Source: Candidatus Nealsonbacteria bacterium (lineage in GTDB: Bacteria > Patescibacteriota > Minisyncoccia > Minisyncoccales > RBG-13-36-15). From it: a DNA stretch of 64,000 nt. Shown here one piece after another: positions 639-61,445 of the stretch. A model generated the notes under the pieces. It worked only from the letters and a program-made list of their open reading frames with translations, was not told the origin of the DNA and did not search any database. Position numbers and translations under genes: made by a program. Position 1 is the stretch's first letter. Every line of letters begins with the position of its first letter. Location of the stretch: contig DRFQ01000009.1 of NCBI GenBank assembly GCA_011050465.1, forward strand, positions 64,334-128,333. The letters are read 5' to 3'.

Positions 639-728
639 CACCAGAGCGAAGCTCGGTGCTGGACCAGTCCCGAACTGAACTTCGTTCTAGTTCGGGGCTT
701 TATGCGGGGTAAATTTTTTGGTAGAATC
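639..728 (+). repeat. Family B intergenic cassette, copy 1 (hairpin 669-696, then ttttttggtagaat)
   Basis: Near-identical to 15091-15168 and 18091-18180. It ends in a TGnTAGAAT extended -10-like box 25 nt before the ATG at 754. Confidence 0.8.
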
Positions 729-753
729 AAATAAAAGCCTCGAAAAAAAACTA

Positions 754-3700
754 ATGCAGCTAGACTTAAAAAAACTAAACAAAGAGCAAAAAGAGGCGGT
801 GATCCACAGCAAGGGGCCGCTTTTGATTGTGGCAGGATCTGGAACCGGGAAAACAACGGTGATTACCCAAAGGATTGCTTATTTGATTGAAAAGGGGATG
901 GCCAAACCGGAAGAAATTTTAGCTGTTACCTTTACTGAGAAAGCGGCCGAAGAAATGGAGGAAAGGATTGATAGGCTTTTACCATACGGTTACGTTGATT
1001 TATGGATTTTAACTTTCCATTCTTTTTGCGAAAGAGTTTTAAGAGACCACGCTCTGGACATTGGTCTACCGGCCGATTTCAAGATTTTGGAACCGACGGC
1101 GGGATGGCTTTTGGTGCGTCAGAACCTGGACAAGTTTGAACTTGATTATTACAAGCCCCTGGGCAATCCGACTAAATTCATTCAGGCTTTAATTTCTCAT
1201 TTTTCCCATTGCAAAGATCAGGAGATTTACCCCGAAGATTATTTGGAATACGCCGATAAATTAAAAACCAGAGACGATGTGCCGGAAACTCAAGAAACAG
1301 AAAGGATAAAGGAAGTGGCCAATGCCTTCCACGTTTATCAAAGATTGCTTCTGGAAAATAGCTCTTTAGACTTCGGAGATTTGATAAATTACTGTCTGAA
1401 GCTATTTAAAAAAAGGCCTTTGATTCTGAAAAAATACAGGGAAAAATTCAAATACATTTTAGTTGACGAATTTCAGGATACTAATTGGTCACAGTATGAA
1501 TTGATAAAGATTTTGGCGGCGCCCAAAAACAATCTGACCGTCTGCGCTGATGACGACCAGGCGATTTACCGCTGGAGGGGGGCGTCTTTTGCCAATATTA
1601 TCCAATTTATAAAGGATTTCCCGAAAGCAAAACAAATATCTTTGGTTAAAAATTACAGGTCTGCCCAGAATATCCTGGATTTGGCCTACAAATTTATAAA
1701 AGCCAACGATCCCGATCGGCTTGAATACGTGAATAAAATCAATAAAAAATTAATTGCAGACAATAAGGGGAAAGGAATAATTGAGCATATCCACGCCAAA
1801 AGTCTGGACGAGGAAGCCGGGAAAACAATCAGGAAAATCCTGGAAGTTTTAAAAAAAGATAAAGAGATAAATTACAATGATATTGCTATTTTAGTTAGGG
1901 CGAACAACGCGGCAAATTCTTTCACAAAAGCCCTGGAAAGAGCGGGTCTGCCCTATCAATTTTTGGCTTCAAAAGGGCTTTATGCAAAGCCCTGTGTTCT
2001 GGACGTTATTTCCTATTTCAAACTTTTGGACAATTACCACGAAAGCCCGGCGGTTTACAGGGTTCTGAATCTGCCCTTTTTGGGAATTCCCTACGATGAT
2101 ATAGTGAAGCTCACTCAATATGGCCACCGCAAAACAAAATCTCTTTACGAGGTGATGGAAGAGCTCCCTTTGGTTTCCGGGATATCTAAAAAAACGCAGA
2201 GAAAAACCGCTTTTATTCTGAGCTTGATTAAGAAACACATCGCCCTTTCGCGGGAGAAAGCGGTTTCGGAAATGCTGATAGCTTTTTTGAAAGATTCCGG
2301 CTATTTGAAATATCTGGTGGATAAAGACGATAAAGAGCAGATTGATATTCTCAACCAGTTCTACAAAAGAATAAAGAATTTTGAAGAAGCCGCGACAGAG
2401 CCAAATTTAAAGAATTTCATGGAAGAAATAACTTTTGAAATAGAATCGGGAGAAGAGGGGAAGCTTGAGTTTGATCCCAAACAGGGTCCGGATATGATAA
2501 AAGTGATGACCATTCACGGAGCCAAAGGTTTGGAGTTCAAATATGTCTTTTTGGTCAATATGGTGGACAAAAGATTCCCGACCATTGAAAGGAAAGATTT
2601 AATTGAGCTTCCCGAAGAATTGATTAAAGACATCAAGCCCGAGGGAGATGTCCATTTGCAGGAAGAAAGGAGGATTTGTTACGTGGCGATGACTAGGGCC
2701 AAAAAAGAGCTTTATTTCACTTCAGCCGAGGATTACGGCCTGGTGAGGAAAAAGAGATTGTCGCGATTTTTGATAGAAATGGGCTATAAAGATAAATCCG
2801 AAACCGACCGGACGCGAAACGGACTCCCCGGAGGGTTGCATTCGCCAGATCGAGCGAAGCGAGGGACTCCCCGGAGGGTTGCATCCAAAAACAGTTTGCT
2901 TGCGCCATCTTTCATTAAAACTGCCCCTTTCGCCGAAGTAGCTCTCGCCTCGCCGAAGCCTTCGGCGAAGCGCGGGTCGGCTACGAAGGGTAAAAGAAAA
3001 ACAGGATCAGACTATCTTCCCGGACATTTTTCTTTTTCCCAACTGGCCGCTTTTGAAAAATGTCCCCTGCAGTACAAATTAAATTTTATTTTAAAAGTTC
3101 CCATCAAAGGCAAGGCTGTGTTCTCGTTCGGAAAAACAATGCACAACACTTTTTATAATTTTTTGAAATACGTAAACGAAAACAATAAAAACAATCAAGG
3201 CAATTTGTTTGGTTTTGCCGCCTCTTCCGCGAAAGAGGCGAGCCTCGCCCTTTCGGGGCGGGAAGATAGGTTGAGATTAAATGATCTGATGGAAATTTAC
3301 GAAAAAAACTGGATTGATGAATGGTACGAAAATAAAAATCAAAAAGAAGAATACTACAAGCTCGGCAAGAAAATAGTTAAAGATTTTTACGAAGAATTTG
3401 TAAAAAATCCGCCGAAGATTTTAAAAATTGATAATACCCTTGCTTTAGAAATGCCGTTTAATTTGAAAATAGGAGGGCATACCTTATACGGCGTAATAGA
3501 TAGAATTGATGAAACGGAAGGGGGAGTGGCGATTATTGATTACAAAACAGGAAATTCGAAAGAAAAATTGGTCTTGAGCGACAAGGAACAATTATTAATT
3601 TATCAAATAGCGGTTGAGGAGATTTTTAAAATAAAACCGAAAGAACTAATTTATTATTATTTGAACGACGGCAAGAAAGCGTCTTTCCTGGGTTCGGATA

Positions 3701-3834
3701 AGGAAAAAGGTCGTCTTAAAGAAAAAATCATTCAGGAGATCGAAGAAATAAAAAAGAGCGATTTTAAGGCAACGCCCGGCTGGCAATGCGGATTTTGCGA
3801 CTTTAAAGATATCTGTGACTTCGCAGAAAGGTAA
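754..3834 (+). CDS. UvrD/PcrA-type superfamily 1 helicase fused to a C-terminal PD-(D/E)XK nuclease with a Cas4/AddB-like four-Cys cluster
   Basis: Walker A GSGTGKTT, DEFQDT, the VKNYRS and TIHGAKGLEF helicase motifs. C-terminal IIDYKTG plus Cys residues (EKCP ... WQCGFCDFKDIC). The start is moved to ATG 754 because the track start at 718 overlaps the -10-like box. Confidence 0.85.
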   Translation: MQLDLKKLNKEQKEAVIHSKGPLLIVAGSGTGKTTVITQRIAYLIEKGMAKPEEILAVTFTEKAAEEMEERIDRLLPYGYVDLWILTFHSFCERVLRDHALDIGLPADFKILEPTAGWLLVRQNLDKFELDYYKPLGNPTKFIQALISHFSHCKDQEIYPEDYLEYADKLKTRDDVPETQETERIKEVANAFHVYQRLLLENSSLDFGDLINYCLKLFKKRPLILKKYREKFKYILVDEFQDTNWSQYELIKILAAPKNNLTVCADDDQAIYRWRGASFANIIQFIKDFPKAKQISLVKNYRSAQNILDLAYKFIKANDPDRLEYVNKINKKLIADNKGKGIIEHIHAKSLDEEAGKTIRKILEVLKKDKEINYNDIAILVRANNAANSFTKALERAGLPYQFLASKGLYAKPCVLDVISYFKLLDNYHESPAVYRVLNLPFLGIPYDDIVKLTQYGHRKTKSLYEVMEELPLVSGISKKTQRKTAFILSLIKKHIALSREKAVSEMLIAFLKDSGYLKYLVDKDDKEQIDILNQFYKRIKNFEEAATEPNLKNFMEEITFEIESGEEGKLEFDPKQGPDMIKVMTIHGAKGLEFKYVFLVNMVDKRFPTIERKDLIELPEELIKDIKPEGDVHLQEERRICYVAMTRAKKELYFTSAEDYGLVRKKRLSRFLIEMGYKDKSETDRTRNGLPGGLHSPDRAKRGTPRRVASKNSLLAPSFIKTAPFAEVALASPKPSAKRGSATKGKRKTGSDYLPGHFSFSQLAAFEKCPLQYKLNFILKVPIKGKAVFSFGKTMHNTFYNFLKYVNENNKNNQGNLFGFAASSAKEASLALSGREDRLRLNDLMEIYEKNWIDEWYENKNQKEEYYKLGKKIVKDFYEEFVKNPPKILKIDNTLALEMPFNLKIGGHTLYGVIDRIDETEGGVAIIDYKTGNSKEKLVLSDKEQLLIYQIAVEEIFKIKPKELIYYYLNDGKKASFLGSDKEKGRLKEKIIQEIEEIKKSDFKATPGWQCGFCDFKDICDFAER
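2798..2990 (+). repeat. GC-rich repeat block embedded in frame in the helicase-nuclease linker
   Basis: A 21-nt perfect direct repeat ggactccccggagggttgcat lies at 2821-2841 and 2864-2884. The palindrome cgccgaagccttcggcg is also present. GC is far above the flanking coding sequence. Confidence 0.7.
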
Positions 3835-14485: not shown

Positions 14486-15091
14486 ATGAATAAAATCTAT
14501 ATTTTTTTTATATTAATAATTTTAATTTTGGGGGGTTATTTTTTCATTGTCCAAAATAGGGGAGAGGAATCCATGGACCGTAATATTATAACTCCGCTCG
14601 ACACTAATATGATTGCGACAATGCAGACTAATTTTGGTGAGATTAAATTAGAGCTTTTCTCGTCTGATGCGCCAAAAACAGTCGAGAATTTCATTAAGCT
14701 TGCTGAGTCAGGTTTTTATGATGGCGTAAAATTCCACCGAGTGATTAAAGGGTTTATGATTCAAGGTGGCGATCCTCTCAGTAAAGACAATGCTTTGAAA
14801 GATAGATGGGGAACAGGGGGGCCCGGCTATACTTTCTCAGATGAAATCCACTCAAAGAACCGTAATGTTGTAGGCACCATTTCCATGGCCAATGCTGGAC
14901 CAAACACAAATGGCAGTCAGTTTTTTATCAATACTAATGATAATAACAGTCTCGATAACAAGCATACTGTTTTCGGTAAAGTAATAACAGGGATTGATAT
15001 CGTTGAAAATATTGAAAATGTAGCCACAGAAGGTCCGGACCGTCCGGTCGATGATGTAATTATCGAAAGTATTAAGATAACAAGCAACTAA
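14486..15091 (+). CDS. ppiB: Cyclophilin-type peptidyl-prolyl cis-trans isomerase with an N-terminal membrane anchor
   Basis: FHRVIKGFMIQGGDP, SMANAGPNTNGSQFFI and HTVFGKV motifs. N-terminal hydrophobic helix. Confidence 0.9.
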   Translation: MNKIYIFFILIILILGGYFFIVQNRGEESMDRNIITPLDTNMIATMQTNFGEIKLELFSSDAPKTVENFIKLAESGFYDGVKFHRVIKGFMIQGGDPLSKDNALKDRWGTGGPGYTFSDEIHSKNRNVVGTISMANAGPNTNGSQFFINTNDNNSLDNKHTVFGKVITGIDIVENIENVATEGPDRPVDDVIIESIKITSN

Positions 15092-15168
15092 GCACGGTGC
15101 TGAACCAGCCCCGAACTAGAACGAAGTTCAGTTCGGGGCTTTATGCGGGGTAAAGTTTTTGGTAAGAT
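15091..15168 (+). repeat. Family B intergenic cassette, copy 2 (hairpin 15109-15138 is inverted relative to copy 1)
   Basis: The flanks are colinear with copies 1 and 3. The central hairpin is the exact reverse complement of 669-696. The copy ends in tttttggtaagat, 23 nt before the ATG at 15192. Confidence 0.8.
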
Positions 15169-15191
15169 AGAAAGCAAAATTTTATTCTAAT

Positions 15192-17466: not shown

Positions 17467-17512
17467 GCCTATGGGCAAGGCGGACGGATACAGTAACTTT
17501 ATTCAAGGTCCC

Positions 17513-17548
17513 TAGTCAGCGTAGTATTGAGGCCGACCGAGAGGCCTA
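17513..17548 (+). repeat. Family D repeat copy (ctagtcagcgYagtatYgaggccgaccgagaggcc)
   Basis: Second copy at 23226-23262. Contains an aggcc/ggcct hairpin. Confidence 0.6.
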
Positions 17549-18090: not shown

Positions 18091-18180
18091 GCACCAGAGC
18101 TGAGCACGGTGCTGGACCAGTCCCGAACTGAACTTCGTTCTAATCCGGGGCTTTATGCGGGGTAAATTTTTTGGTATAAT
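18091..18180 (+). repeat. Family B intergenic cassette, copy 3 (ends in ttttttggtataat)
   Basis: Near-identical to 639-728. The right arm of the hairpin is mutated (aatccgggg). A TGGTATAAT extended -10 lies 32 nt before the ATG at 18213. Confidence 0.8.
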
Positions 18181-18212
18181 GCAATAATGAAGCAAACAAG
18201 ATAAAAACAAAT

Positions 18213-18800: not shown

Positions 18801-18988
18801 TTTCAGATTGATGAACTATTTCCAATCCCTATTTGAGCGCGGTCTACTCCGAGTTTACCTGTGGTGAGCTTGTGGAATCCATCGGAGGGTTCGGAGAGAC
18901 TGAGCCGGGTCAGTCGACATTGAATCAATCTAGAGCCACCGCCCGAGAGCTGTCAGCCTTGGGTTTTGCTATTCTGATTTTAATAAAT

Positions 18989-19061
18989 AAGAGGATGGCT
19001 AAGGCCAAACCTCTTTTTTGTTTGTCTTGAGGCGGAAAGAATAGTAAAATAGTAGAAAGAT
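18989..19061 (+). promoter_or_regulatory. Family E terminator-plus-promoter module, copy 1
   Basis: Hairpin aagagg..cctctt plus a T-run, then TTGTCT (19022-19027), a 17-nt spacer and TAAAAT (19045-19050). Repeated at 31890-31963; the promoter half also occurs at 20678-20720. Confidence 0.6.
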
Positions 19062-20647: not shown

Positions 20648-20677
20648 AATGATTTTTGGTGCCTTTGGCGAAGCTTT

Positions 20678-20720
20678 ATTTGTCTTAAACCGAAAATGGT
20701 AGTAAAATAGTAGAAAGATT
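20678..20720 (+). promoter_or_regulatory. Family E promoter half, copy 3
   Basis: TTGTCT (20680-20685), a 17-nt spacer, TAAAAT (20703-20708), then agtagaaagatt directly abutting the ATG, as at 31964. Confidence 0.55.
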
Positions 20721-20939
20721 ATGGATTTCCAAGAAATTCAAAAAAAAGTTGTTGAGAACGTTTTCAATTATGGTAAAAAATACAATGTTGAGATTGACGA
20801 GGACTTTGTATTATTTAAGCTATATGAAGAAGTAGGGGAGTTGGCACAGTCCGTTTTAATCCACAGAAAGAAGTGTAGGCCCGAGAAATACCTTTCAGAT
20901 GAAAAATCAAAAGAAGAATTAGCACACTGTTTAATTTAG
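20721..20939 (+). pseudogene. MazG-like nucleotide pyrophosphohydrolase, C-terminally truncated fragment
   Basis: The KLYEEVGELAQ motif (the EExxE metal site of MazG-type all-alpha NTP-PPases) is present. The ORF stops at ELAHCLI, where the second helix pair should continue. Confidence 0.5.
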
Positions 20940-21884: not shown

Positions 21885-22885
21885 ATACACACTTTTGGCG
21901 GTTTGGTTAGTTAATAATTTTAAGCATTTGATTCGGCGTCTTTCCGTTAAGTCCGCAATGTTTTGTGTCGTTGTATTCCATATTCCACAATCTTAATTTG
22001 TATCTTAGATCTTCGAAAGATTTAAATTCAGTTTCATCATAGAATTTCTCTTGATCTTCTCTGTGAGATCTCTCTACAAAACTGTTCTGCCGGGGTTTGC
22101 CCGGGTCAATCAAATGGTGGGGTATGCCCAATTCCTGGCAGAGTATATCGAAGGGGTGCAGCCTCGGGTTTAAAGGGTCTGTGCTTTTATTATATCCTGT
22201 ATACCTGTTGGTGAAACAAGAAGTATTATCTGTCTTAATTGCTTTAATTTCAAAGTTGGCAATGGCTATTAGTTCTCTCAAAAACCTTATCGCGCTGAGA
22301 TTGGAAGCATCCTCGTATGCTTGCAAATACCTCCACCTTGAGCCGCAATCTATGGCTGTAAATTGATAATATCTCTGCCCTTTTATCTTATCTGGAACAT
22401 ATTTTACATCAATCTTTACCAGCTCACCCTTCTTTAAAGGAATTCTAACATATTTGTATTTAATCTTCCTTGTCCTGTATTTTCTGGTCAGTCCTTCATT
22501 TTTAATTATCTTCTGGATAGTTTGGTAATGTATGTTTATTCCTTCTTCCCCTAAGTCTCACTGCACTTTCAAGGCGCATTGCTTTTTCTCTTTTCTCAAT
22601 TCAATAATTCTTTCCTTTATCCTGATGGGCGTTTCTTTGGGATTTGTTTTGGGCCTTGTAGATTTCGGTTCCAATCCCTCCTCTCCGTATATCTTGTAGT
22701 TATGCAGCCACCTTTCTAATGTTCTTTTAGCGGTAGGGACACATTTTGGCGGCGTTCGTAATGCTTACTTCTTTGTTCAAAATGGGCAATATCCATCTTA
22801 ACCGTTTCTCTTTAATTGTTTTGGCCATATTTACACACATATACCGAAACTATATCAGCTTCGGTAAAACCCGCCATATGTGTAT
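21885..22885 (-). mobile_element. Decayed IS481-family-like insertion sequence (about 1 kb)
   Basis: Imperfect terminal inverted repeats: atacacacttttggcggttt (21885-21904) versus the reverse complement of aaacccgccatatgtgtat (22867-22885). They enclose an rve-type transposase reading frame. Confidence 0.6.
21907..22828 (-). pseudogene. IS481-like DDE (rve) transposase, disrupted
   Basis: The N-terminal HTH part MAKTIKEKRLRWILPILNKEVSITNAAKMCPY is followed by a frameshift. An in-frame TGA follows (ALKVQ*DLGEEG). The frame then continues YYQFTAIDCGSRWRYLQAYEDAS into the 139-aa ORF, which carries IKTDN and VERSHRED. Confidence 0.7.
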
Positions 22886-23225: not shown

Positions 23226-23262
23226 CTAGTCAGCGCAGTATCGAGGCCGACCGAGAGGCCTT
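23226..23262 (+). repeat. Family D repeat copy
   Basis: tagtcagcgcagtatcgaggccgaccgagaggcc matches 17513-17548. Confidence 0.6.
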
Positions 23263-31853: not shown

Positions 31854-31889
31854 AGACTTAGTTTTTCTTATTGGCGGATTTGTATAGAT

Positions 31890-31963
31890 AAGAGGATGGC
31901 TAAGGCCAAACCTCTTTTTTGTTTGTCTTGAAACGGGAATAGTAGTAAAATAGTAGAAAGATT
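31890..31963 (+). promoter_or_regulatory. Family E terminator-plus-promoter module, copy 2
   Basis: Same hairpin and T-run as 18989. TTGTCT (31923-31928), a 17-nt spacer, TAAAAT (31946-31951), with the leader agtagaaagatt abutting the ATG at 31964. Confidence 0.6.
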
Positions 31964-50401: not shown

Positions 50402-51238
50402 ATGATTACCAGGAGATTTAGAAAACCTTACCGGATTAGAAAGAAAAAATCGATTTTACGCAATCGATTTTTTTGGCTAGGCATTATAATCATTATTATT
50501 GCCGGAGCTATTTTTTATTTTTTATTTTTTTCAAAGACTTTCCAGATTAAACAAACTATTGTTACCGGCGAAGAAAAGGTCTCAGAAGAAAGTCTTAAAT
50601 TATTAATAGAAAAAAGGTTAGAAAATAGAATATTGTTTTTTAAGACAAGAAGCCTTTTCTTGGTTAACTTAAATGGAATAAAAGATGATATTTTAGATAA
50701 CTTTCCCCAGATAGCAGAAGTTAAAGTCAGTCAAAGTTTCCCTGATACTATTAATATTATTGTAGTAGAAAGATTGGATTTGGCAATTTGGTGCCAAACA
50801 GAACATTGTTTTTTACTTGATAGAAAAGGAATAATTTTTGACTTAGTTAGAAATGACATTTCTACTGAATCTGAGAAGGTTCCGGGCGAAATTGTTTTGA
50901 CAAAGATTATAGACAGAAGAGATATAAGTTCTTTTAATTTGGGAGATCAAATCATTGAAGAAGATGTTTTAGTATCGATTCTCGACATTAAAAAACACAT
51001 AAAAGGAAATCTTGAAATAGAAATAGAAGAGTTTGTTATTCTTAATCCAGGAAGGTTGAACGTTAAAACCGCCGAAGGCTGGGAGATTTATTTTGATCTT
51101 CAAAAGGATATCTCCTGGCAGCTGACAAAATTAAATTTGGTTTTAAAAGAAGAAATCCCCCCGGAAGAAAGAGGGAATTTAGATTATATCGAGCTAAGGT
51201 TCACCAGGGTCTACTATAAATATAAAGCAGGAGATTAA
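50402..51238 (+). CDS. ftsQ: Cell division protein FtsQ/DivIB
   Basis: Basic N-terminus, TM helix, POTRA (I..I.V.G......I), and position after the mur/fem genes. Confidence 0.75.
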   Translation: MITRRFRKPYRIRKKKSILRNRFFWLGIIIIIIAGAIFYFLFFSKTFQIKQTIVTGEEKVSEESLKLLIEKRLENRILFFKTRSLFLVNLNGIKDDILDNFPQIAEVKVSQSFPDTINIIVVERLDLAIWCQTEHCFLLDRKGIIFDLVRNDISTESEKVPGEIVLTKIIDRRDISSFNLGDQIIEEDVLVSILDIKKHIKGNLEIEIEEFVILNPGRLNVKTAEGWEIYFDLQKDISWQLTKLNLVLKEEIPPEERGNLDYIELRFTRVYYKYKAGD

Positions 51239-53118
51239 TCAATATAATATACGAAAATTGAGTAGCCGATTTTTTTTATAAGTTTGTATTTATCAAGCCA
51301 GAGATAATATCCTACAGGTTGGTCAAAGCCATAAGCTGGTTGGCCTTTTCCTCCCTGCAAAAGAGTAACAGATACCGCCAGATAGCTTCCCTTGGGAAGC
51401 TTTTTTGGATTCCACCTCCCCTGCCAGGGCCTAAATCTTTTGCCCAAATAATACGTTGTATCTCCTCCACCGAAATAATCAACGTAAATTTCATTAATTC
51501 CTTCTTTTTCTATCCACGTTTTTAATCTCTTTAAATCCTGGCCCCAGTCTAGATTGGAATCAACAGCATAAGTATGGCCATTATTTGGCCCGCCGACTGT
51601 TTCATTGAAATAAGAAAGAAAATGAGGATAAGTTTTTATAACCGAAACAGCCTGCCAGAGAATTAAAATAATTAAAATTGAGTATTTAATAAGTTTGAAC
51701 AGGCGATTTCTTTCTGTTTTTAATAAAACAATGATCCCGCCGCCGACCAGAATATAAACAAAAGGAAAGGTGGGAAGCAGGTGTCGGACGCCAATGTTTA
51801 AGTTGCTGCTTAAACTTGTTCCCCAATATATCAGAAGCCAAACCAAGAAAACAAATTCAGTGAAGTGATCTTTTATCCAATTTCTAAGACGGGAAAGAGT
51901 TTGCCTCCAGGACATTCGGCTGAGCCCTTCGGCAGTGAGCTCAGGACGAACCTGCTCAGTCGAAGCCAAAAGCCTCTTTATTGAGTAAGCGACGAAAAGC
52001 AAAGTTATCAAAGTTAAAATATGAAAAGCCAAGGGTTCCTTAATAATATAAACAATAGGGAAGTATTGAATCCAGCCTGCAGCTGAAATTTCTCCTAAAA
52101 AGTAAGTAGTATTACCGCCGGCCGCCCTTCCTGTAGCCATAAAAACACCTAAAAAATAATGACTCCAAGGCTTTAGAATCGGACGTTCTGCCATCCAACC
52201 GACAATTTCTGCGGGAGTCCCCAGTTTCAAGGGAAGATTAGGCAAAATATTATTAAGGGGATGGTCTTTTAAAAACTCTTGAGCATAATCTTCTATCTTT
52301 TCTGTGGGTAAGTTTAAAACATGATATTGGTATACAGGCCAGATTAAAAGAAAAGCAATGATAAAAACCAGAATAATCTTTACACCATAAGAGAAAAATT
52401 GTTTAATTTTTTCTTTCTCAACTTTAAATATTATCCAAAGAAAGAAGATAATGATAAAAAGAGGAAAGAGAAGGATTAAAGAGAATTTTAAAAGTTGAGC
52501 TATTGCAAAAGCAATACCAGCTAAAATAATATTCTTATAAGTAGGGGTTTTTAAGAATTTTAGAAAGTAGTAAATACCCAGAACTGCTCCGGCCGCCGCG
52601 GCGACATCTGTGGTGACCAATCTGCCGTGAGCGAGAAAATTAGGTGAGAAAACAAACAGAAACAAGGACAGAAGCGCAGCCTTGTTTCCAAAAAGTTTTC
52701 TTGTCCAGAGGAAGATAAACCATCCTAAAAATATCAATAATAAAATCATGGGCAGCCTCGACCAGAATAAGATTTGGTCAGGATCGTTGCCTGAACGGTA
52801 TAAAAATTGATAGGCAAAATCGAATTGATGCCACCAGACAGGTTTCTCGTCTTGAATCCAAGATGAATCATCTTTTGGGAAATTAAGATTTAGAAACAGA
52901 AGCGGGATAGCAGCAAGGTCTTTGATTAATGGGGGATGCTCCGGATTAAGCCTCATATCCTTTTGAGTTAGATAGGAATAGCCAGCTGAGACATGGGCAG
53001 TTTCGTCAAAAGTAAAAGAATCCTCGAGTATACTGAAAATAGCCATCAAGAACATAGATAGAAGCAATATTCCAGCGATAATATAGGTCAAGTCATTTGG
53101 AGACCTCAATTTTGACAT
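51235..53118 (-). CDS. GT39/PMT_2-type phospholipid-carrier-dependent glycosyltransferase
   Basis: FDETAHVSAGYSY ... NPEHPPLIKDL loop-1 motif in a polytopic membrane protein. Confidence 0.8.
   Translation of the reverse strand: MSKLRSPNDLTYIIAGILLLSMFLMAIFSILEDSFTFDETAHVSAGYSYLTQKDMRLNPEHPPLIKDLAAIPLLFLNLNFPKDDSSWIQDEKPVWWHQFDFAYQFLYRSGNDPDQILFWSRLPMILLLIFLGWFIFLWTRKLFGNKAALLSLFLFVFSPNFLAHGRLVTTDVAAAAGAVLGIYYFLKFLKTPTYKNIILAGIAFAIAQLLKFSLILLFPLFIIIFFLWIIFKVEKEKIKQFFSYGVKIILVFIIAFLLIWPVYQYHVLNLPTEKIEDYAQEFLKDHPLNNILPNLPLKLGTPAEIVGWMAERPILKPWSHYFLGVFMATGRAAGGNTTYFLGEISAAGWIQYFPIVYIIKEPLAFHILTLITLLFVAYSIKRLLASTEQVRPELTAEGLSRMSWRQTLSRLRNWIKDHFTEFVFLVWLLIYWGTSLSSNLNIGVRHLLPTFPFVYILVGGGIIVLLKTERNRLFKLIKYSILIILILWQAVSVIKTYPHFLSYFNETVGGPNNGHTYAVDSNLDWGQDLKRLKTWIEKEGINEIYVDYFGGGDTTYYLGKRFRPWQGRWNPKKLPKGSYLAVSVTLLQGGKGQPAYGFDQPVGYYLWLDKYKLIKKIGYSIFVYYID
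51907..51967 (+). repeat. Family A GC-rich element, in-frame intragenic copy
   Basis: The 61 nt are identical to 61325-61385. On the minus strand they encode ASTEQVRPELTAEGLSRMSW within the GT39 protein. Confidence 0.85.
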
Positions 53119-57744: not shown

Positions 57745-57768
57745 CGCTCAGCAACGAAGTCTCAAAGT

Positions 57769-57830
57769 ACCGACCCTCAAAATCCCAGGACATTCGGCTG
57801 AGCTCAGTCGAAGCCCGAGATTTTGGGGTC
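57769..57830 (+). repeat. Family A GC-rich element, short intergenic variant
   Basis: accgaccctcaaaatcccaggacattcggCTGAGCTCAGtcgaagcccgagatt. Stem gaccctcaaaatc/gattttggggtc. Confidence 0.8.
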
Positions 57831-57957
57831 TGCGTTCTCGGCTTCTCGTCCGCCTTCGGCGGAACCATGCCGATGAGCCTGCGAAAGCTACTTTAAAACT
57901 TGTTGCCTCGCTTAGAGATTATTCGTATATGCGTAATAATTCGTAATTCGTAGGGAT

Positions 57958-59265: not shown

Positions 59266-59937
59266 ATGAGACTACAAGATGCTGTACTTTTTCCTAAAGA
59301 TCCCGTAATTTGGCCTGATGGTTTTCTTCCCATTCAAGGATGGGACCAAAGAATACAGATAAGGCTGCCGGTCGCTATTGGCAGTTTTGATGAAATACGG
59401 GTCGCACAAGCCATGTCTCAGAAAACTATCGAAATGATGACGAACTCGGGAAGTCAGCTTCTCTTTAAAAAAATCAAAATAGAAATTCGGGAAAGGACGT
59501 ATTGGCTTGCTTTACAAATTGAACCACAAGGATTTATTATTTTTGACCCGCCATTAGAATCGAGATCTAAAAAGCAGAAATCCAATGCCGTTTATTACGC
59601 TGCTAGCGAGAAGTGGGGATTATTGGTTCAATATATCCCTCCTGACTCTAGGACATCTTCTCATGACCATTCAAAGTCAAGATGGATCGAAACAAATCAT
59701 CCTCTTATCGGCGGGGCAAAATTGTGTACCTCCGAGAATCGACAGCAACAATTGACGTACCATTTAACAATGGCTAATCCGATCAGCCCGGTGATAACAC
59801 CAAGAGTTATTCATCAGATATCGACAGATGACCAACCCCTTTTGAATATCATAGAAATCACAGGAGATCCAGACTGGTTCAAAAAATGGAAAAACGGAGG
59901 AGGGCATACCTTCGAAACGTTCCCGCAACAGCCTTAA
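59266..59937 (+). CDS. Hypothetical protein, possibly cupin-like
   Basis: Strong AAGGAGG SD and its own terminator (59953-59987). The C-terminal half has H-D-H ... E and P...H spacings reminiscent of cupin motifs. Confidence 0.4.
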   Translation: MRLQDAVLFPKDPVIWPDGFLPIQGWDQRIQIRLPVAIGSFDEIRVAQAMSQKTIEMMTNSGSQLLFKKIKIEIRERTYWLALQIEPQGFIIFDPPLESRSKKQKSNAVYYAASEKWGLLVQYIPPDSRTSSHDHSKSRWIETNHPLIGGAKLCTSENRQQQLTYHLTMANPISPVITPRVIHQISTDDQPLLNIIEITGDPDWFKKWKNGGGHTFETFPQQP

Positions 59938-61277: not shown

Positions 61278-61308
61278 AGTTTATCGTTCGGTTGCCGAGC
61301 CGCAAATC

Positions 61309-61393
61309 ACCGACCCTCAAAATCCCAGGACATTCGGCTGAGCCCTTCGGCAGTGAGCTCAGGACGAACCTGCTCAGTCGAAGCCCGAGATTT
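61309..61393 (+). repeat. Family A GC-rich element, long intergenic variant
   Basis: Its ends match 57769-57822, with 30 extra nt between CTGAGC and TCAGTCGA. The core is identical to 51907-51967. Confidence 0.85.
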
Positions 61394-61445
61394 ACAAACC
61401 GGTCGCTCAGCTCCCTGTAATTGCTGAGCAATTAAGCATAGGGTT

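Follow-up and report, generated by a model that had tools for sequence, protein, structure and literature searches.

Two short sequence units, here named P and U, recur in the analyzed window, a 64,000-nt stretch of a contig from Candidatus Nealsonbacteria, which belongs to the Patescibacteria (CPR). They are probably ultra-small mobile modules, which insert at their own centers without target duplication, stack into one another and, once combined, move as whole composites. P is 27 nt long (GACATTCGGCTGAG^CTCAGTCGAAGCC, where "^" marks the central bond); U is 30 nt long (YCCTTCGRCAGTGAG^CTCAGGACGAAYCTG) and is located, in the window, at the central bond of P. Both were defined by cross-locus comparison: the boundaries of P were set by comparing filled and empty sites, and by the restoration of a host module upon removal of exactly P. 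Unit boundaries, the central bond, both orientations, empty alleles, the lack of target duplication and in-frame copies within coding sequences are all directly visible in the compared sequences.

The window has a GC content of 36%, carries almost every gene on one strand and includes genes for ATP synthase, GrpE-DnaK-DnaJ, Mur and Mre proteins and tRNA synthetases. P is present three times, once bare (copy A) and twice filled with U (copies B and C). The relevant features are:

57770-57832 (+): outer hairpin "shell" of copy A, gaccctcaaaatc ... gattttggggtc, with P in the loop at CCAG^CGA
57789-57815 (+): copy A, bare P, with its center CTGAG^CTCAG empty, in the dnaK-dnaJ spacer
61298-61328 (+): left shell part of copy B, homologous to 57758-57788 by repeat-family comparison
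61329-61385 (+): copy B, 57-nt composite P+U, between an S41 peptidase gene and an acylphosphatase gene
61343-61372 (+): U in copy B, CCCTTCGGCAGTGAG^CTCAGGACGAACCTG, at the exact center of P, in (-) orientation relative to the commoner metagenome form
61386-61393: right shell part of copy B, cgagattt, with divergence beyond
51911-51967 (+): copy C, the same 57-nt P+U, in frame in a minus-strand GT39/PMT_2 gene
51925-51954 (+): U in copy C, identical to the U of copy B
51235-53118 (-): host gene of copy C, glycosyltransferase family 39 (PMT_2), 627 aa (homologues found, 574-623 aa)
18900-18917 (+): CTGAGCcgggTCAGTCGA, intergenic singleton, with 14 bases (6+8) in common with P

The window contains three instances of the left half of P, CAGGACATTCGGCTGAGC, where chance would give 0.02. 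For the looser pattern CTGAGC-N(0-30)-TCAGTCGA, four instances were counted (0.00 expected by chance): at 57798-57811 (no insert), at 18900-18917 (4 nt), and at 51920-51963 and 61338-61381 (30 nt). Copies B and C feature 100% identity across 61 nt (61325-61385 and 51907-51967), while their flanks are unrelated, indicating that the composite moved as one unit.

P alone is predicted to fold into an 8-bp stem with a 4-nt loop. Its layout may be written as GACA-TTCGGCTG-AGCT-CAGTCGAA-GCC, where a 4-nt unpaired head is followed by the stem, the loop and a 3-nt tail. P+U composites generate nested hairpins, when analyzed by DNA folding. Around copy A, the shell arms gaccctcaaaatc and gattttggggtc pair with each other: the 63-nt DNA fold reaches -14.1 kcal/mol (z = -3.5), a value equaled by none of 200 shuffled sequences. 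The shell is common to copies A and B, extending over 46 nt on their left side (91% identity) and over 22 nt on their right side. The copy-B sequence is also found in independent assemblies of the same species (L017-L019, L023). In a related species (L054) the two genes flanking copy B overlap by 4 nt; the 168-nt spacer which hosts copy B is thus added DNA.

Two further observations concern this neighborhood. To the right of copy B (61400-61435), the palindrome GCTCAGC-tccctgtaatt-GCTGAGC is found; a 22-mer of it is also located just upstream of dnaJ in the related species (L054:1-22), so that the palindrome represents a further dispersed hairpin module. An open reading frame at 59266-59937 (+), located between tRNA-Lys and the S41 peptidase gene, encodes a 223-aa protein with no match in Pfam; a search of 5.8 billion sequences yielded four relatives only.

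An earlier note on this DNA had arranged the four sites in a single series, sharing fixed ends around a central insert of variable length. Its coordinates and sequences agree with the window at all sites, and three of the sites (A, B and C) indeed belong together. The shared ends and the 30-nt separator of the two long copies, as well as the flanking stem of the short one, are those described there. The site at 18900, presented as a variant with a 4-nt insert, must be removed from the series. Its flanks (agaCTGAGC and TCAGTCGAcat) lack the "cgg" and "ag" context of the other copies, its fold is no better than those of shuffled sequences (z = -0.28), and no second copy of the region was found by blastn-short in about 400 kb of retrieved DNA. 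A "4-nt insert class" was rejected on these grounds, and it is doubtful that the site is even a degenerate relative of P.

The comparison of filled and empty sites shows how the units were acquired. Copy C is absent from all ten aligned GT39 homologues, one of them at 95% identity, where the corresponding 19 aa are missing. A strain with 96.3% DNA identity features, at the same position, a single gap of exactly 57 nt. Without P+U, the flanks of copy C, GTTTGCCTCCAG^AAAAGCCTCTT, are as long as the empty allele, GTTTGCCGCCAAAAAGGCCTCTT, indicating the absence of a target duplication. The insert adds 19 aa in frame to the glycosyltransferase, read as LASTEQVRPELTAEGLSRMS. Three substitutions within 12 nt distinguish the junction from the empty allele; alternatively, the junction could be read as a 58-nt insert accompanied by a 1-nt deletion and one substitution.

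A second pair of alleles documents the insertion of P on its own. In two contigs from Pirellulales-labelled MAGs (L006 and L007), homologous coding stretches differ by exactly 27 nt, GACATTCGGCTGAGCTCAGTCGAAGCC, inserted between GCTTCCAG and CCCGTGCC; 9 aa are added, again with no target duplication. At 11 other loci, removal of exactly P restores a host module of the form CTGAG^NNNN-YCGAAG, in (+) orientation in 8 cases and in (-) orientation in 3, and three of the rejoined 16-mers are found uninterrupted elsewhere in the data. A different trace of these repeats is seen in Logan short-read contigs of the same species, two of which (L020:1-90 and L024:1-163) stop exactly at copies B and A, respectively. 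This indicates that the micro-repeats fragment k-mer assemblies, as true repeats should.

The state of the center of P was evaluated by two different surveys. In the scan of a genome collection, only the left arm was fixed, and the length of the insert was left unconstrained: nine true hits were obtained, two in Patescibacteria and seven in Pirellulales-labelled contigs, and all contain the bare 27-mer, in one case with a single extra base. Two more matches, in GC-rich contigs, are due to chance. In the scan of metagenomes, both exact arms were required, with 1 to 31 nt between them; 27 contigs were retrieved, with inserts of 13, 24, 25, 26, 27 and, mostly, 30 nt, the last class comprising about 15 distinct loci. 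Scans of this kind are blind to non-central insertions, longer inserts and diverged copies, so that the conservation and the centrality observed are partly built into the sample. A scan of IMG/VR yielded a single, viral-labelled contig, with an additional 14-nt insert. In this contig (L026:13050-13350) P, with its duplicated left arm, lies within an array of GGCTCGCTC with a spacing of about 36 nt. Plasmid and phage collections contained nothing relevant: a 29-nt match in Agrobacterium is due to chance, and phages gave none.

The inserts thus fall into discrete length classes (13-14, 24-27 and, mostly, 30 nt), as asked for in the earlier note, and are related modules rather than a continuum of unrelated sequences between the ends. 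Those of 24-30 nt are modules of the type TTCGG..GAG^CTCA..CGAA, while the 13- and 14-nt ones are duplicated left arms, an indication that slippage also shapes these loci. Besides U, seven further insert sequences, ranging from 13 to 27 nt, are found at the same central bond. The superfamily may be more widely spread, as "LSLSKG/PFDKLR" pseudo-peptides in many environmental genomes.

Both orientations of U are represented at the same bond of P, one by 9 distinct contexts and the other by 6. Oppositely oriented copies show a mean of 23.2 matches out of 30 (up to 29 out of 30) after reverse-complementing one of them, and 16.6 out of 30 as written. Since only 10-22 of the 30 positions of U match its own reverse complement, the two orientations are truly distinct. 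U also exists independently of P, as a 29-nt copy is found in a different host module, at AAG^CTCAGG (L039). At many loci, P+U lies in turn within the center of a third module, as in cttgtcCTGAG^[P+U]^tttaTCGAAGG (L028), giving three levels of nesting. The architecture proposed in the earlier note is therefore real: the center of the element is where a discrete unit of its own family inserts. As for the process, which was there ascribed either to self-targeted insertion or to hairpin-primed expansion, the former is retained; the latter is disfavored by insert arms which differ from those of the host, and by a unit which is asymmetric and found inverted.

When the flanks of 35 distinct copies of P are aligned on the insertion point, position -2 is A in 30 of them, position -1 is G in 31, position +1 is C in 28 and position +2 is T in 17, defining AG^C(T) as the preferred step. 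This step coincides with the apex of the host hairpin in the shell of the window, in the CACGGG..CCCGTG hairpin of Pirellulales, in the basic module and in P itself. That both orientations occur would be explained by AG^CT being a palindrome. As composites spread in one piece, many of the copies do not represent separate events. The identical 27-mer is found in contigs of 34-59% GC, bearing different phylum labels; some of these MAG labels may be wrong.

Copies of P are not confined to spacers: 10 of the 35 are located in open frames with a length of 268 aa or more. The element is read there in three different frames, and its copies lie on either strand. For six of them the host was confirmed by Pfam as MetRS, AspRS, PpsA (PEP synthase), SufBD, a sugar epimerase or ZnuA, and in several hosts the Pfam domain match is split or lengthened. 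In the window, the open reading frame of an AddA-like helicase-nuclease (718-3834) contains two in-frame GC-rich inserts, at 2818-2883 (66 nt, 22 aa) and 2923-2982 (60 nt, 20 aa), both missing from nine homologues at 79-86% identity. The former features a 20-nt direct repeat flanking 24 nt, the latter nested palindromes. They belong to sequence families other than P and U, indicating that in-frame palindromic insertion is a general habit of this genome. Module-like peptides are also observed elsewhere: the PEP synthase (L035) and epimerase (L046) hosts contain further ones, some at a distance from the P site (for example, SLSLSQGKLQ in PpsA) and some adjoining it (for example, LRQSQGRLLRQ). 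Several independent micro-insertions per gene seem likely in these two hosts.

Three other families of repeats are present in the window. The first, 97 nt long (638-734, 15079-15175 and 18091-18187; 69-92% identity), consists of a GC-rich hairpin (CCCCGAACT..AGTTCGGGG) and, after it, an A/T-rich tail that terminates in ..TTTTTTGGTAGAAT; as every copy immediately precedes the start of a gene, the family has the appearance of a dispersed cassette of hairpin plus promoter. The second, 86 nt long (18976-19061 and 31877-31962, with a partial copy at 20675-20750), is found directly before a gene in each case, and features a hairpin resembling a terminator (AGAGG..CCTCTTTTTT), with a promoter-like TTGTCT-17-TAAAAT after it. 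The third is a 36-nt repeat (17512-17547 and 23226-23261; 94% identity), CTAGTCAGCG.AGTAT.GAGGCCGACCGAGAGGCCT, with a GGCC..GGCC hairpin.

Different explanations may be considered for the relationship between short and long forms. The long form could be ancestral, the short one deriving from it by precise loss of the inner 30 nt, either because the palindrome is unstable or by slippage at the GAG/CTCAG repeats. Long palindromes are indeed prone to deletion, the polarity between copies A and B cannot be set from the shell they share within the window, and the half-module inserts of 13-14 nt show that the center does undergo slippage or partial deletion. For the A/B pair taken by itself, loss is conceivable; as an account of the whole series it is nevertheless unlikely, given the bare 27-mer in every true hit of the left-arm-only scan, the seven other insert sequences at the same bond and the insertion of bare P itself, documented by host restoration and by the L006/L007 pair; moreover, the presence of U in both orientations and in a host other than P needs at least two independent entries. 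A growth of the arms by snap-back synthesis or tandem duplication, with no separate unit involved, is very improbable. It would fit the resemblance between inner and outer arms (TTCGGC..TGAG, CTCAG..CGAA) and the simple duplicated left arm of L030 and L026; yet it predicts arms identical to those of the host and a single polarity, while the 30-nt unit is asymmetric, is inverted relative to an asymmetric host, resides in another host too (L039), and has arms differing from the host ones by indels (GCAG versus nothing, GGA versus T).

P could also be a functional structured RNA, or a protein-binding site, whose apical loop tolerates extensions and whose copies are kept for their function. The strict conservation of the 27-mer across contigs of very different GC content would be in agreement with this, although exact-match retrieval is in part responsible for it; the spacers hosting copies A and B are transcribed, with both copies in sense orientation, and insertions in apical loops are typical of structured RNAs. 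On the other hand, copies occur within coding sequences on either strand and in three frames, they are missing from near-identical strains and homologues, and no terminator-like tail is present. Rfam 15, run on the window and on one Pirellulales locus, reported tRNA alone at the gathering score, and only sub-threshold chance matches at the permissive E-value limit. A conserved function is therefore quite unlikely as the reason for the distribution of P. Chance similarity or an assembly artefact, for which only the shortness of the motif might speak, is hardly credible in view of the expected counts of 0.02 and 0.00, of the sequence identity between ENA, NCBI and Logan assemblies, made from different runs, and of the reading frame kept by copies inside genes. 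Other candidates were discarded: a ribozyme or riboswitch (hammerhead-like CUGA..GAA), for which Rfam reported nothing relevant; a role of copy A as intrinsic terminator or promoter, no terminator-like site being present; capture of restriction fragments at blunt AG^CT, as the unit ends are not CT.../...AG; and site-specific recombination between two cores, which would give chimeras, not nested units.

Under the preferred reading, that of mobile modules, P and U would represent a superfamily of GC-rich, imperfectly palindromic, non-autonomous DNA modules. A unit would enter, in either orientation and without target-site duplication, at AG^C(T), usually the apex of an existing palindromic module. 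As its own center, CTGAG^CTCAG, would supply the target step, units could enter one another and generate nested hairpins, and the nested composite would then travel as one piece. In the window, a bare P would thus have entered the loop of the dnaK-dnaJ hairpin (A), a paralogous hairpin would host a P carrying U (B), and the 57-nt P+U would have been recently copied into the glycosyltransferase gene (C), where it would be tolerated because 19 codons are added in frame. Gene conversion between filled and empty copies of P may help the spread of U.

Mobilization would occur in trans, by an enzyme recognizing an extruded hairpin or single-stranded DNA. The absence of duplication, the short target motif and the dependence on hairpins recall the single-strand HUH/Y1 transposition of IS200/IS605 and RAYT-REP systems, so that "peel and paste" of the HUH/Y1 type may be the best analogy for the chemistry. 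No Y1/HUH transposase was found by Pfam among the predicted proteins of the window (about 45 ORFs), and approximate IS200 TnpA and RAYT (YafM) queries gave no match by tblastn, a search of low sensitivity, in about 400 kb of retrieved DNA. The sole related Pfam match in the window is to the rve_3 integrase core, in an ORF at 21907-22326 (-), probably a fragment of an IS3-type transposase. A bolder version, in which P and U are self-homing, "fractal" mobile DNA, with an apical AG^CT in CTGAG^CTCAG recognized by a dedicated structure-specific enzyme, spread across phyla and routinely remodeling essential CPR proteins by 9-30 aa in frame, is possible, and we put it forward only tentatively.

Several known elements resemble P and U in part. 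IS200/IS605 elements insert without target duplication beside a short specific motif and need DNA hairpins; both of their ends have a separate hairpin, their polarity with respect to the target motif is fixed, and the genome contains a TnpA gene. P and U share with them the lack of duplication (in two filled/empty pairs), the preference for AG^C(T) and the hairpin, but have one hairpin only, with no TnpA found in the window or in the retrieved loci. Both polarities are observed at host modules, although the preferred AGCT is itself palindromic. As cited in the literature, IS1397 and other insertion sequences have REP or palindromic units as their preferred target: these are full insertion sequences with transposase genes, whereas the incomer, in the case of P and U, is a palindromic unit of the same family. 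MITEs differ in size (70-300 bp, versus 27-57 nt), and by their terminal inverted repeats, target-site duplication and parent IS, since P and U show no duplication in the two filled/empty pairs and no parent IS was seen. The GC clusters of yeast mitochondria are short, palindromic, GC-rich sequences in an AT-rich genome, optional among strains and sometimes in frame within a gene (var1), features which liken them to P and U; they are organellar, a short target duplication has been reported for them, and we know of no self-nesting series among them.

The SDRs of Nostocaceae, reportedly described by Elhai in 2008, are said to be dispersed repeats of 21-27 nt, divided into families SDR1-8, the mobility of which was shown by orthologous loci. 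As far as summary descriptions allow a comparison, P and U are similar to them: at about 20-27 nt, such repeats look mobile but are far too short for any coding capacity. In the summarized account of PMC5861425, SDR5 uses the palindrome HIP1 as insertion site, and SDRs are reported in Nostocaceae only.

The build of tagged REPs is the closest to that of P: according to Di Nocera et al. 2013 (PMC3733652), members of the GTAG and CGTC super-families are 20-40 nt long, and consist of an unpaired 4-nt head (GTAG, or CGTC/TGTC/CCTC), a stem of 8-9 bp whose first two pairs are A/T, a loop of 4-5 nt and a tail of 3 nt. P, at 27 nt, features the same succession of head, stem starting from two A/T pairs, loop and tail. 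Some REP units are intragenic and some REP families are found within other palindromes, and CGTC REPs have no dedicated transposase (PMC3733652); copies of P are likewise found inside genes and inside other palindromes. The differences are that P begins with GACA and ends with GCC, with no GTAG or CGTC/TGTC 5' tag on either strand, when read with the tag at the 5' end and the 3-nt tail at the 3' end; that P modules are nested, unlike the head-to-head doublets of REPINs; that no RAYT was found among the window proteins or, by the low-sensitivity tblastn search, in the retrieved loci; and that the same 27-mer is present in contigs of different phylum labels, in a family which inserts into its own center.

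Classic RPEs are about 100-150 bp long, form ten sequence families and are restricted to Rickettsia; RPE-4 and RPE-6 correspond to short CGTC REPs (PMC3733652). They resemble P and U in being palindromic repeats located in frame in housekeeping genes, where a peptide is added and the gene is left intact. P and U differ in the length of the units (27-30 nt, 57 nt for the composite), in being stacked, and in their presence in Patescibacteria and other lineages, and have no sequence relation to RPEs. No description of such modules was found in the literature on CPR bacteria, SDR work being covered by summaries. On the whole, we rate P and U as REP/SDR-like micro-elements, particular in their insertion at their own center, in their stacking to three levels and in their presence across contigs of 34-59% GC and different phylum labels.

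If truly mobile, P and U would be among the smallest transposable entities known, and would provide a simple rule for building long composite hairpins, where each unit carries the target of the next one. Repeats of this kind break short-read assemblies at exact positions. Their in-frame insertions alter housekeeping proteins of minimal-genome CPR bacteria, such as a glycosyltransferase, MetRS, AspRS and PpsA, and have a bearing on protein evolution, on the odd low-complexity segments of CPR proteomes and on gene calling. The identity of the 27-mer across contigs so different in GC content and phylum label points to either horizontal spread or a conserved recognizing enzyme; such an enzyme would be the main prize of the P/U system.
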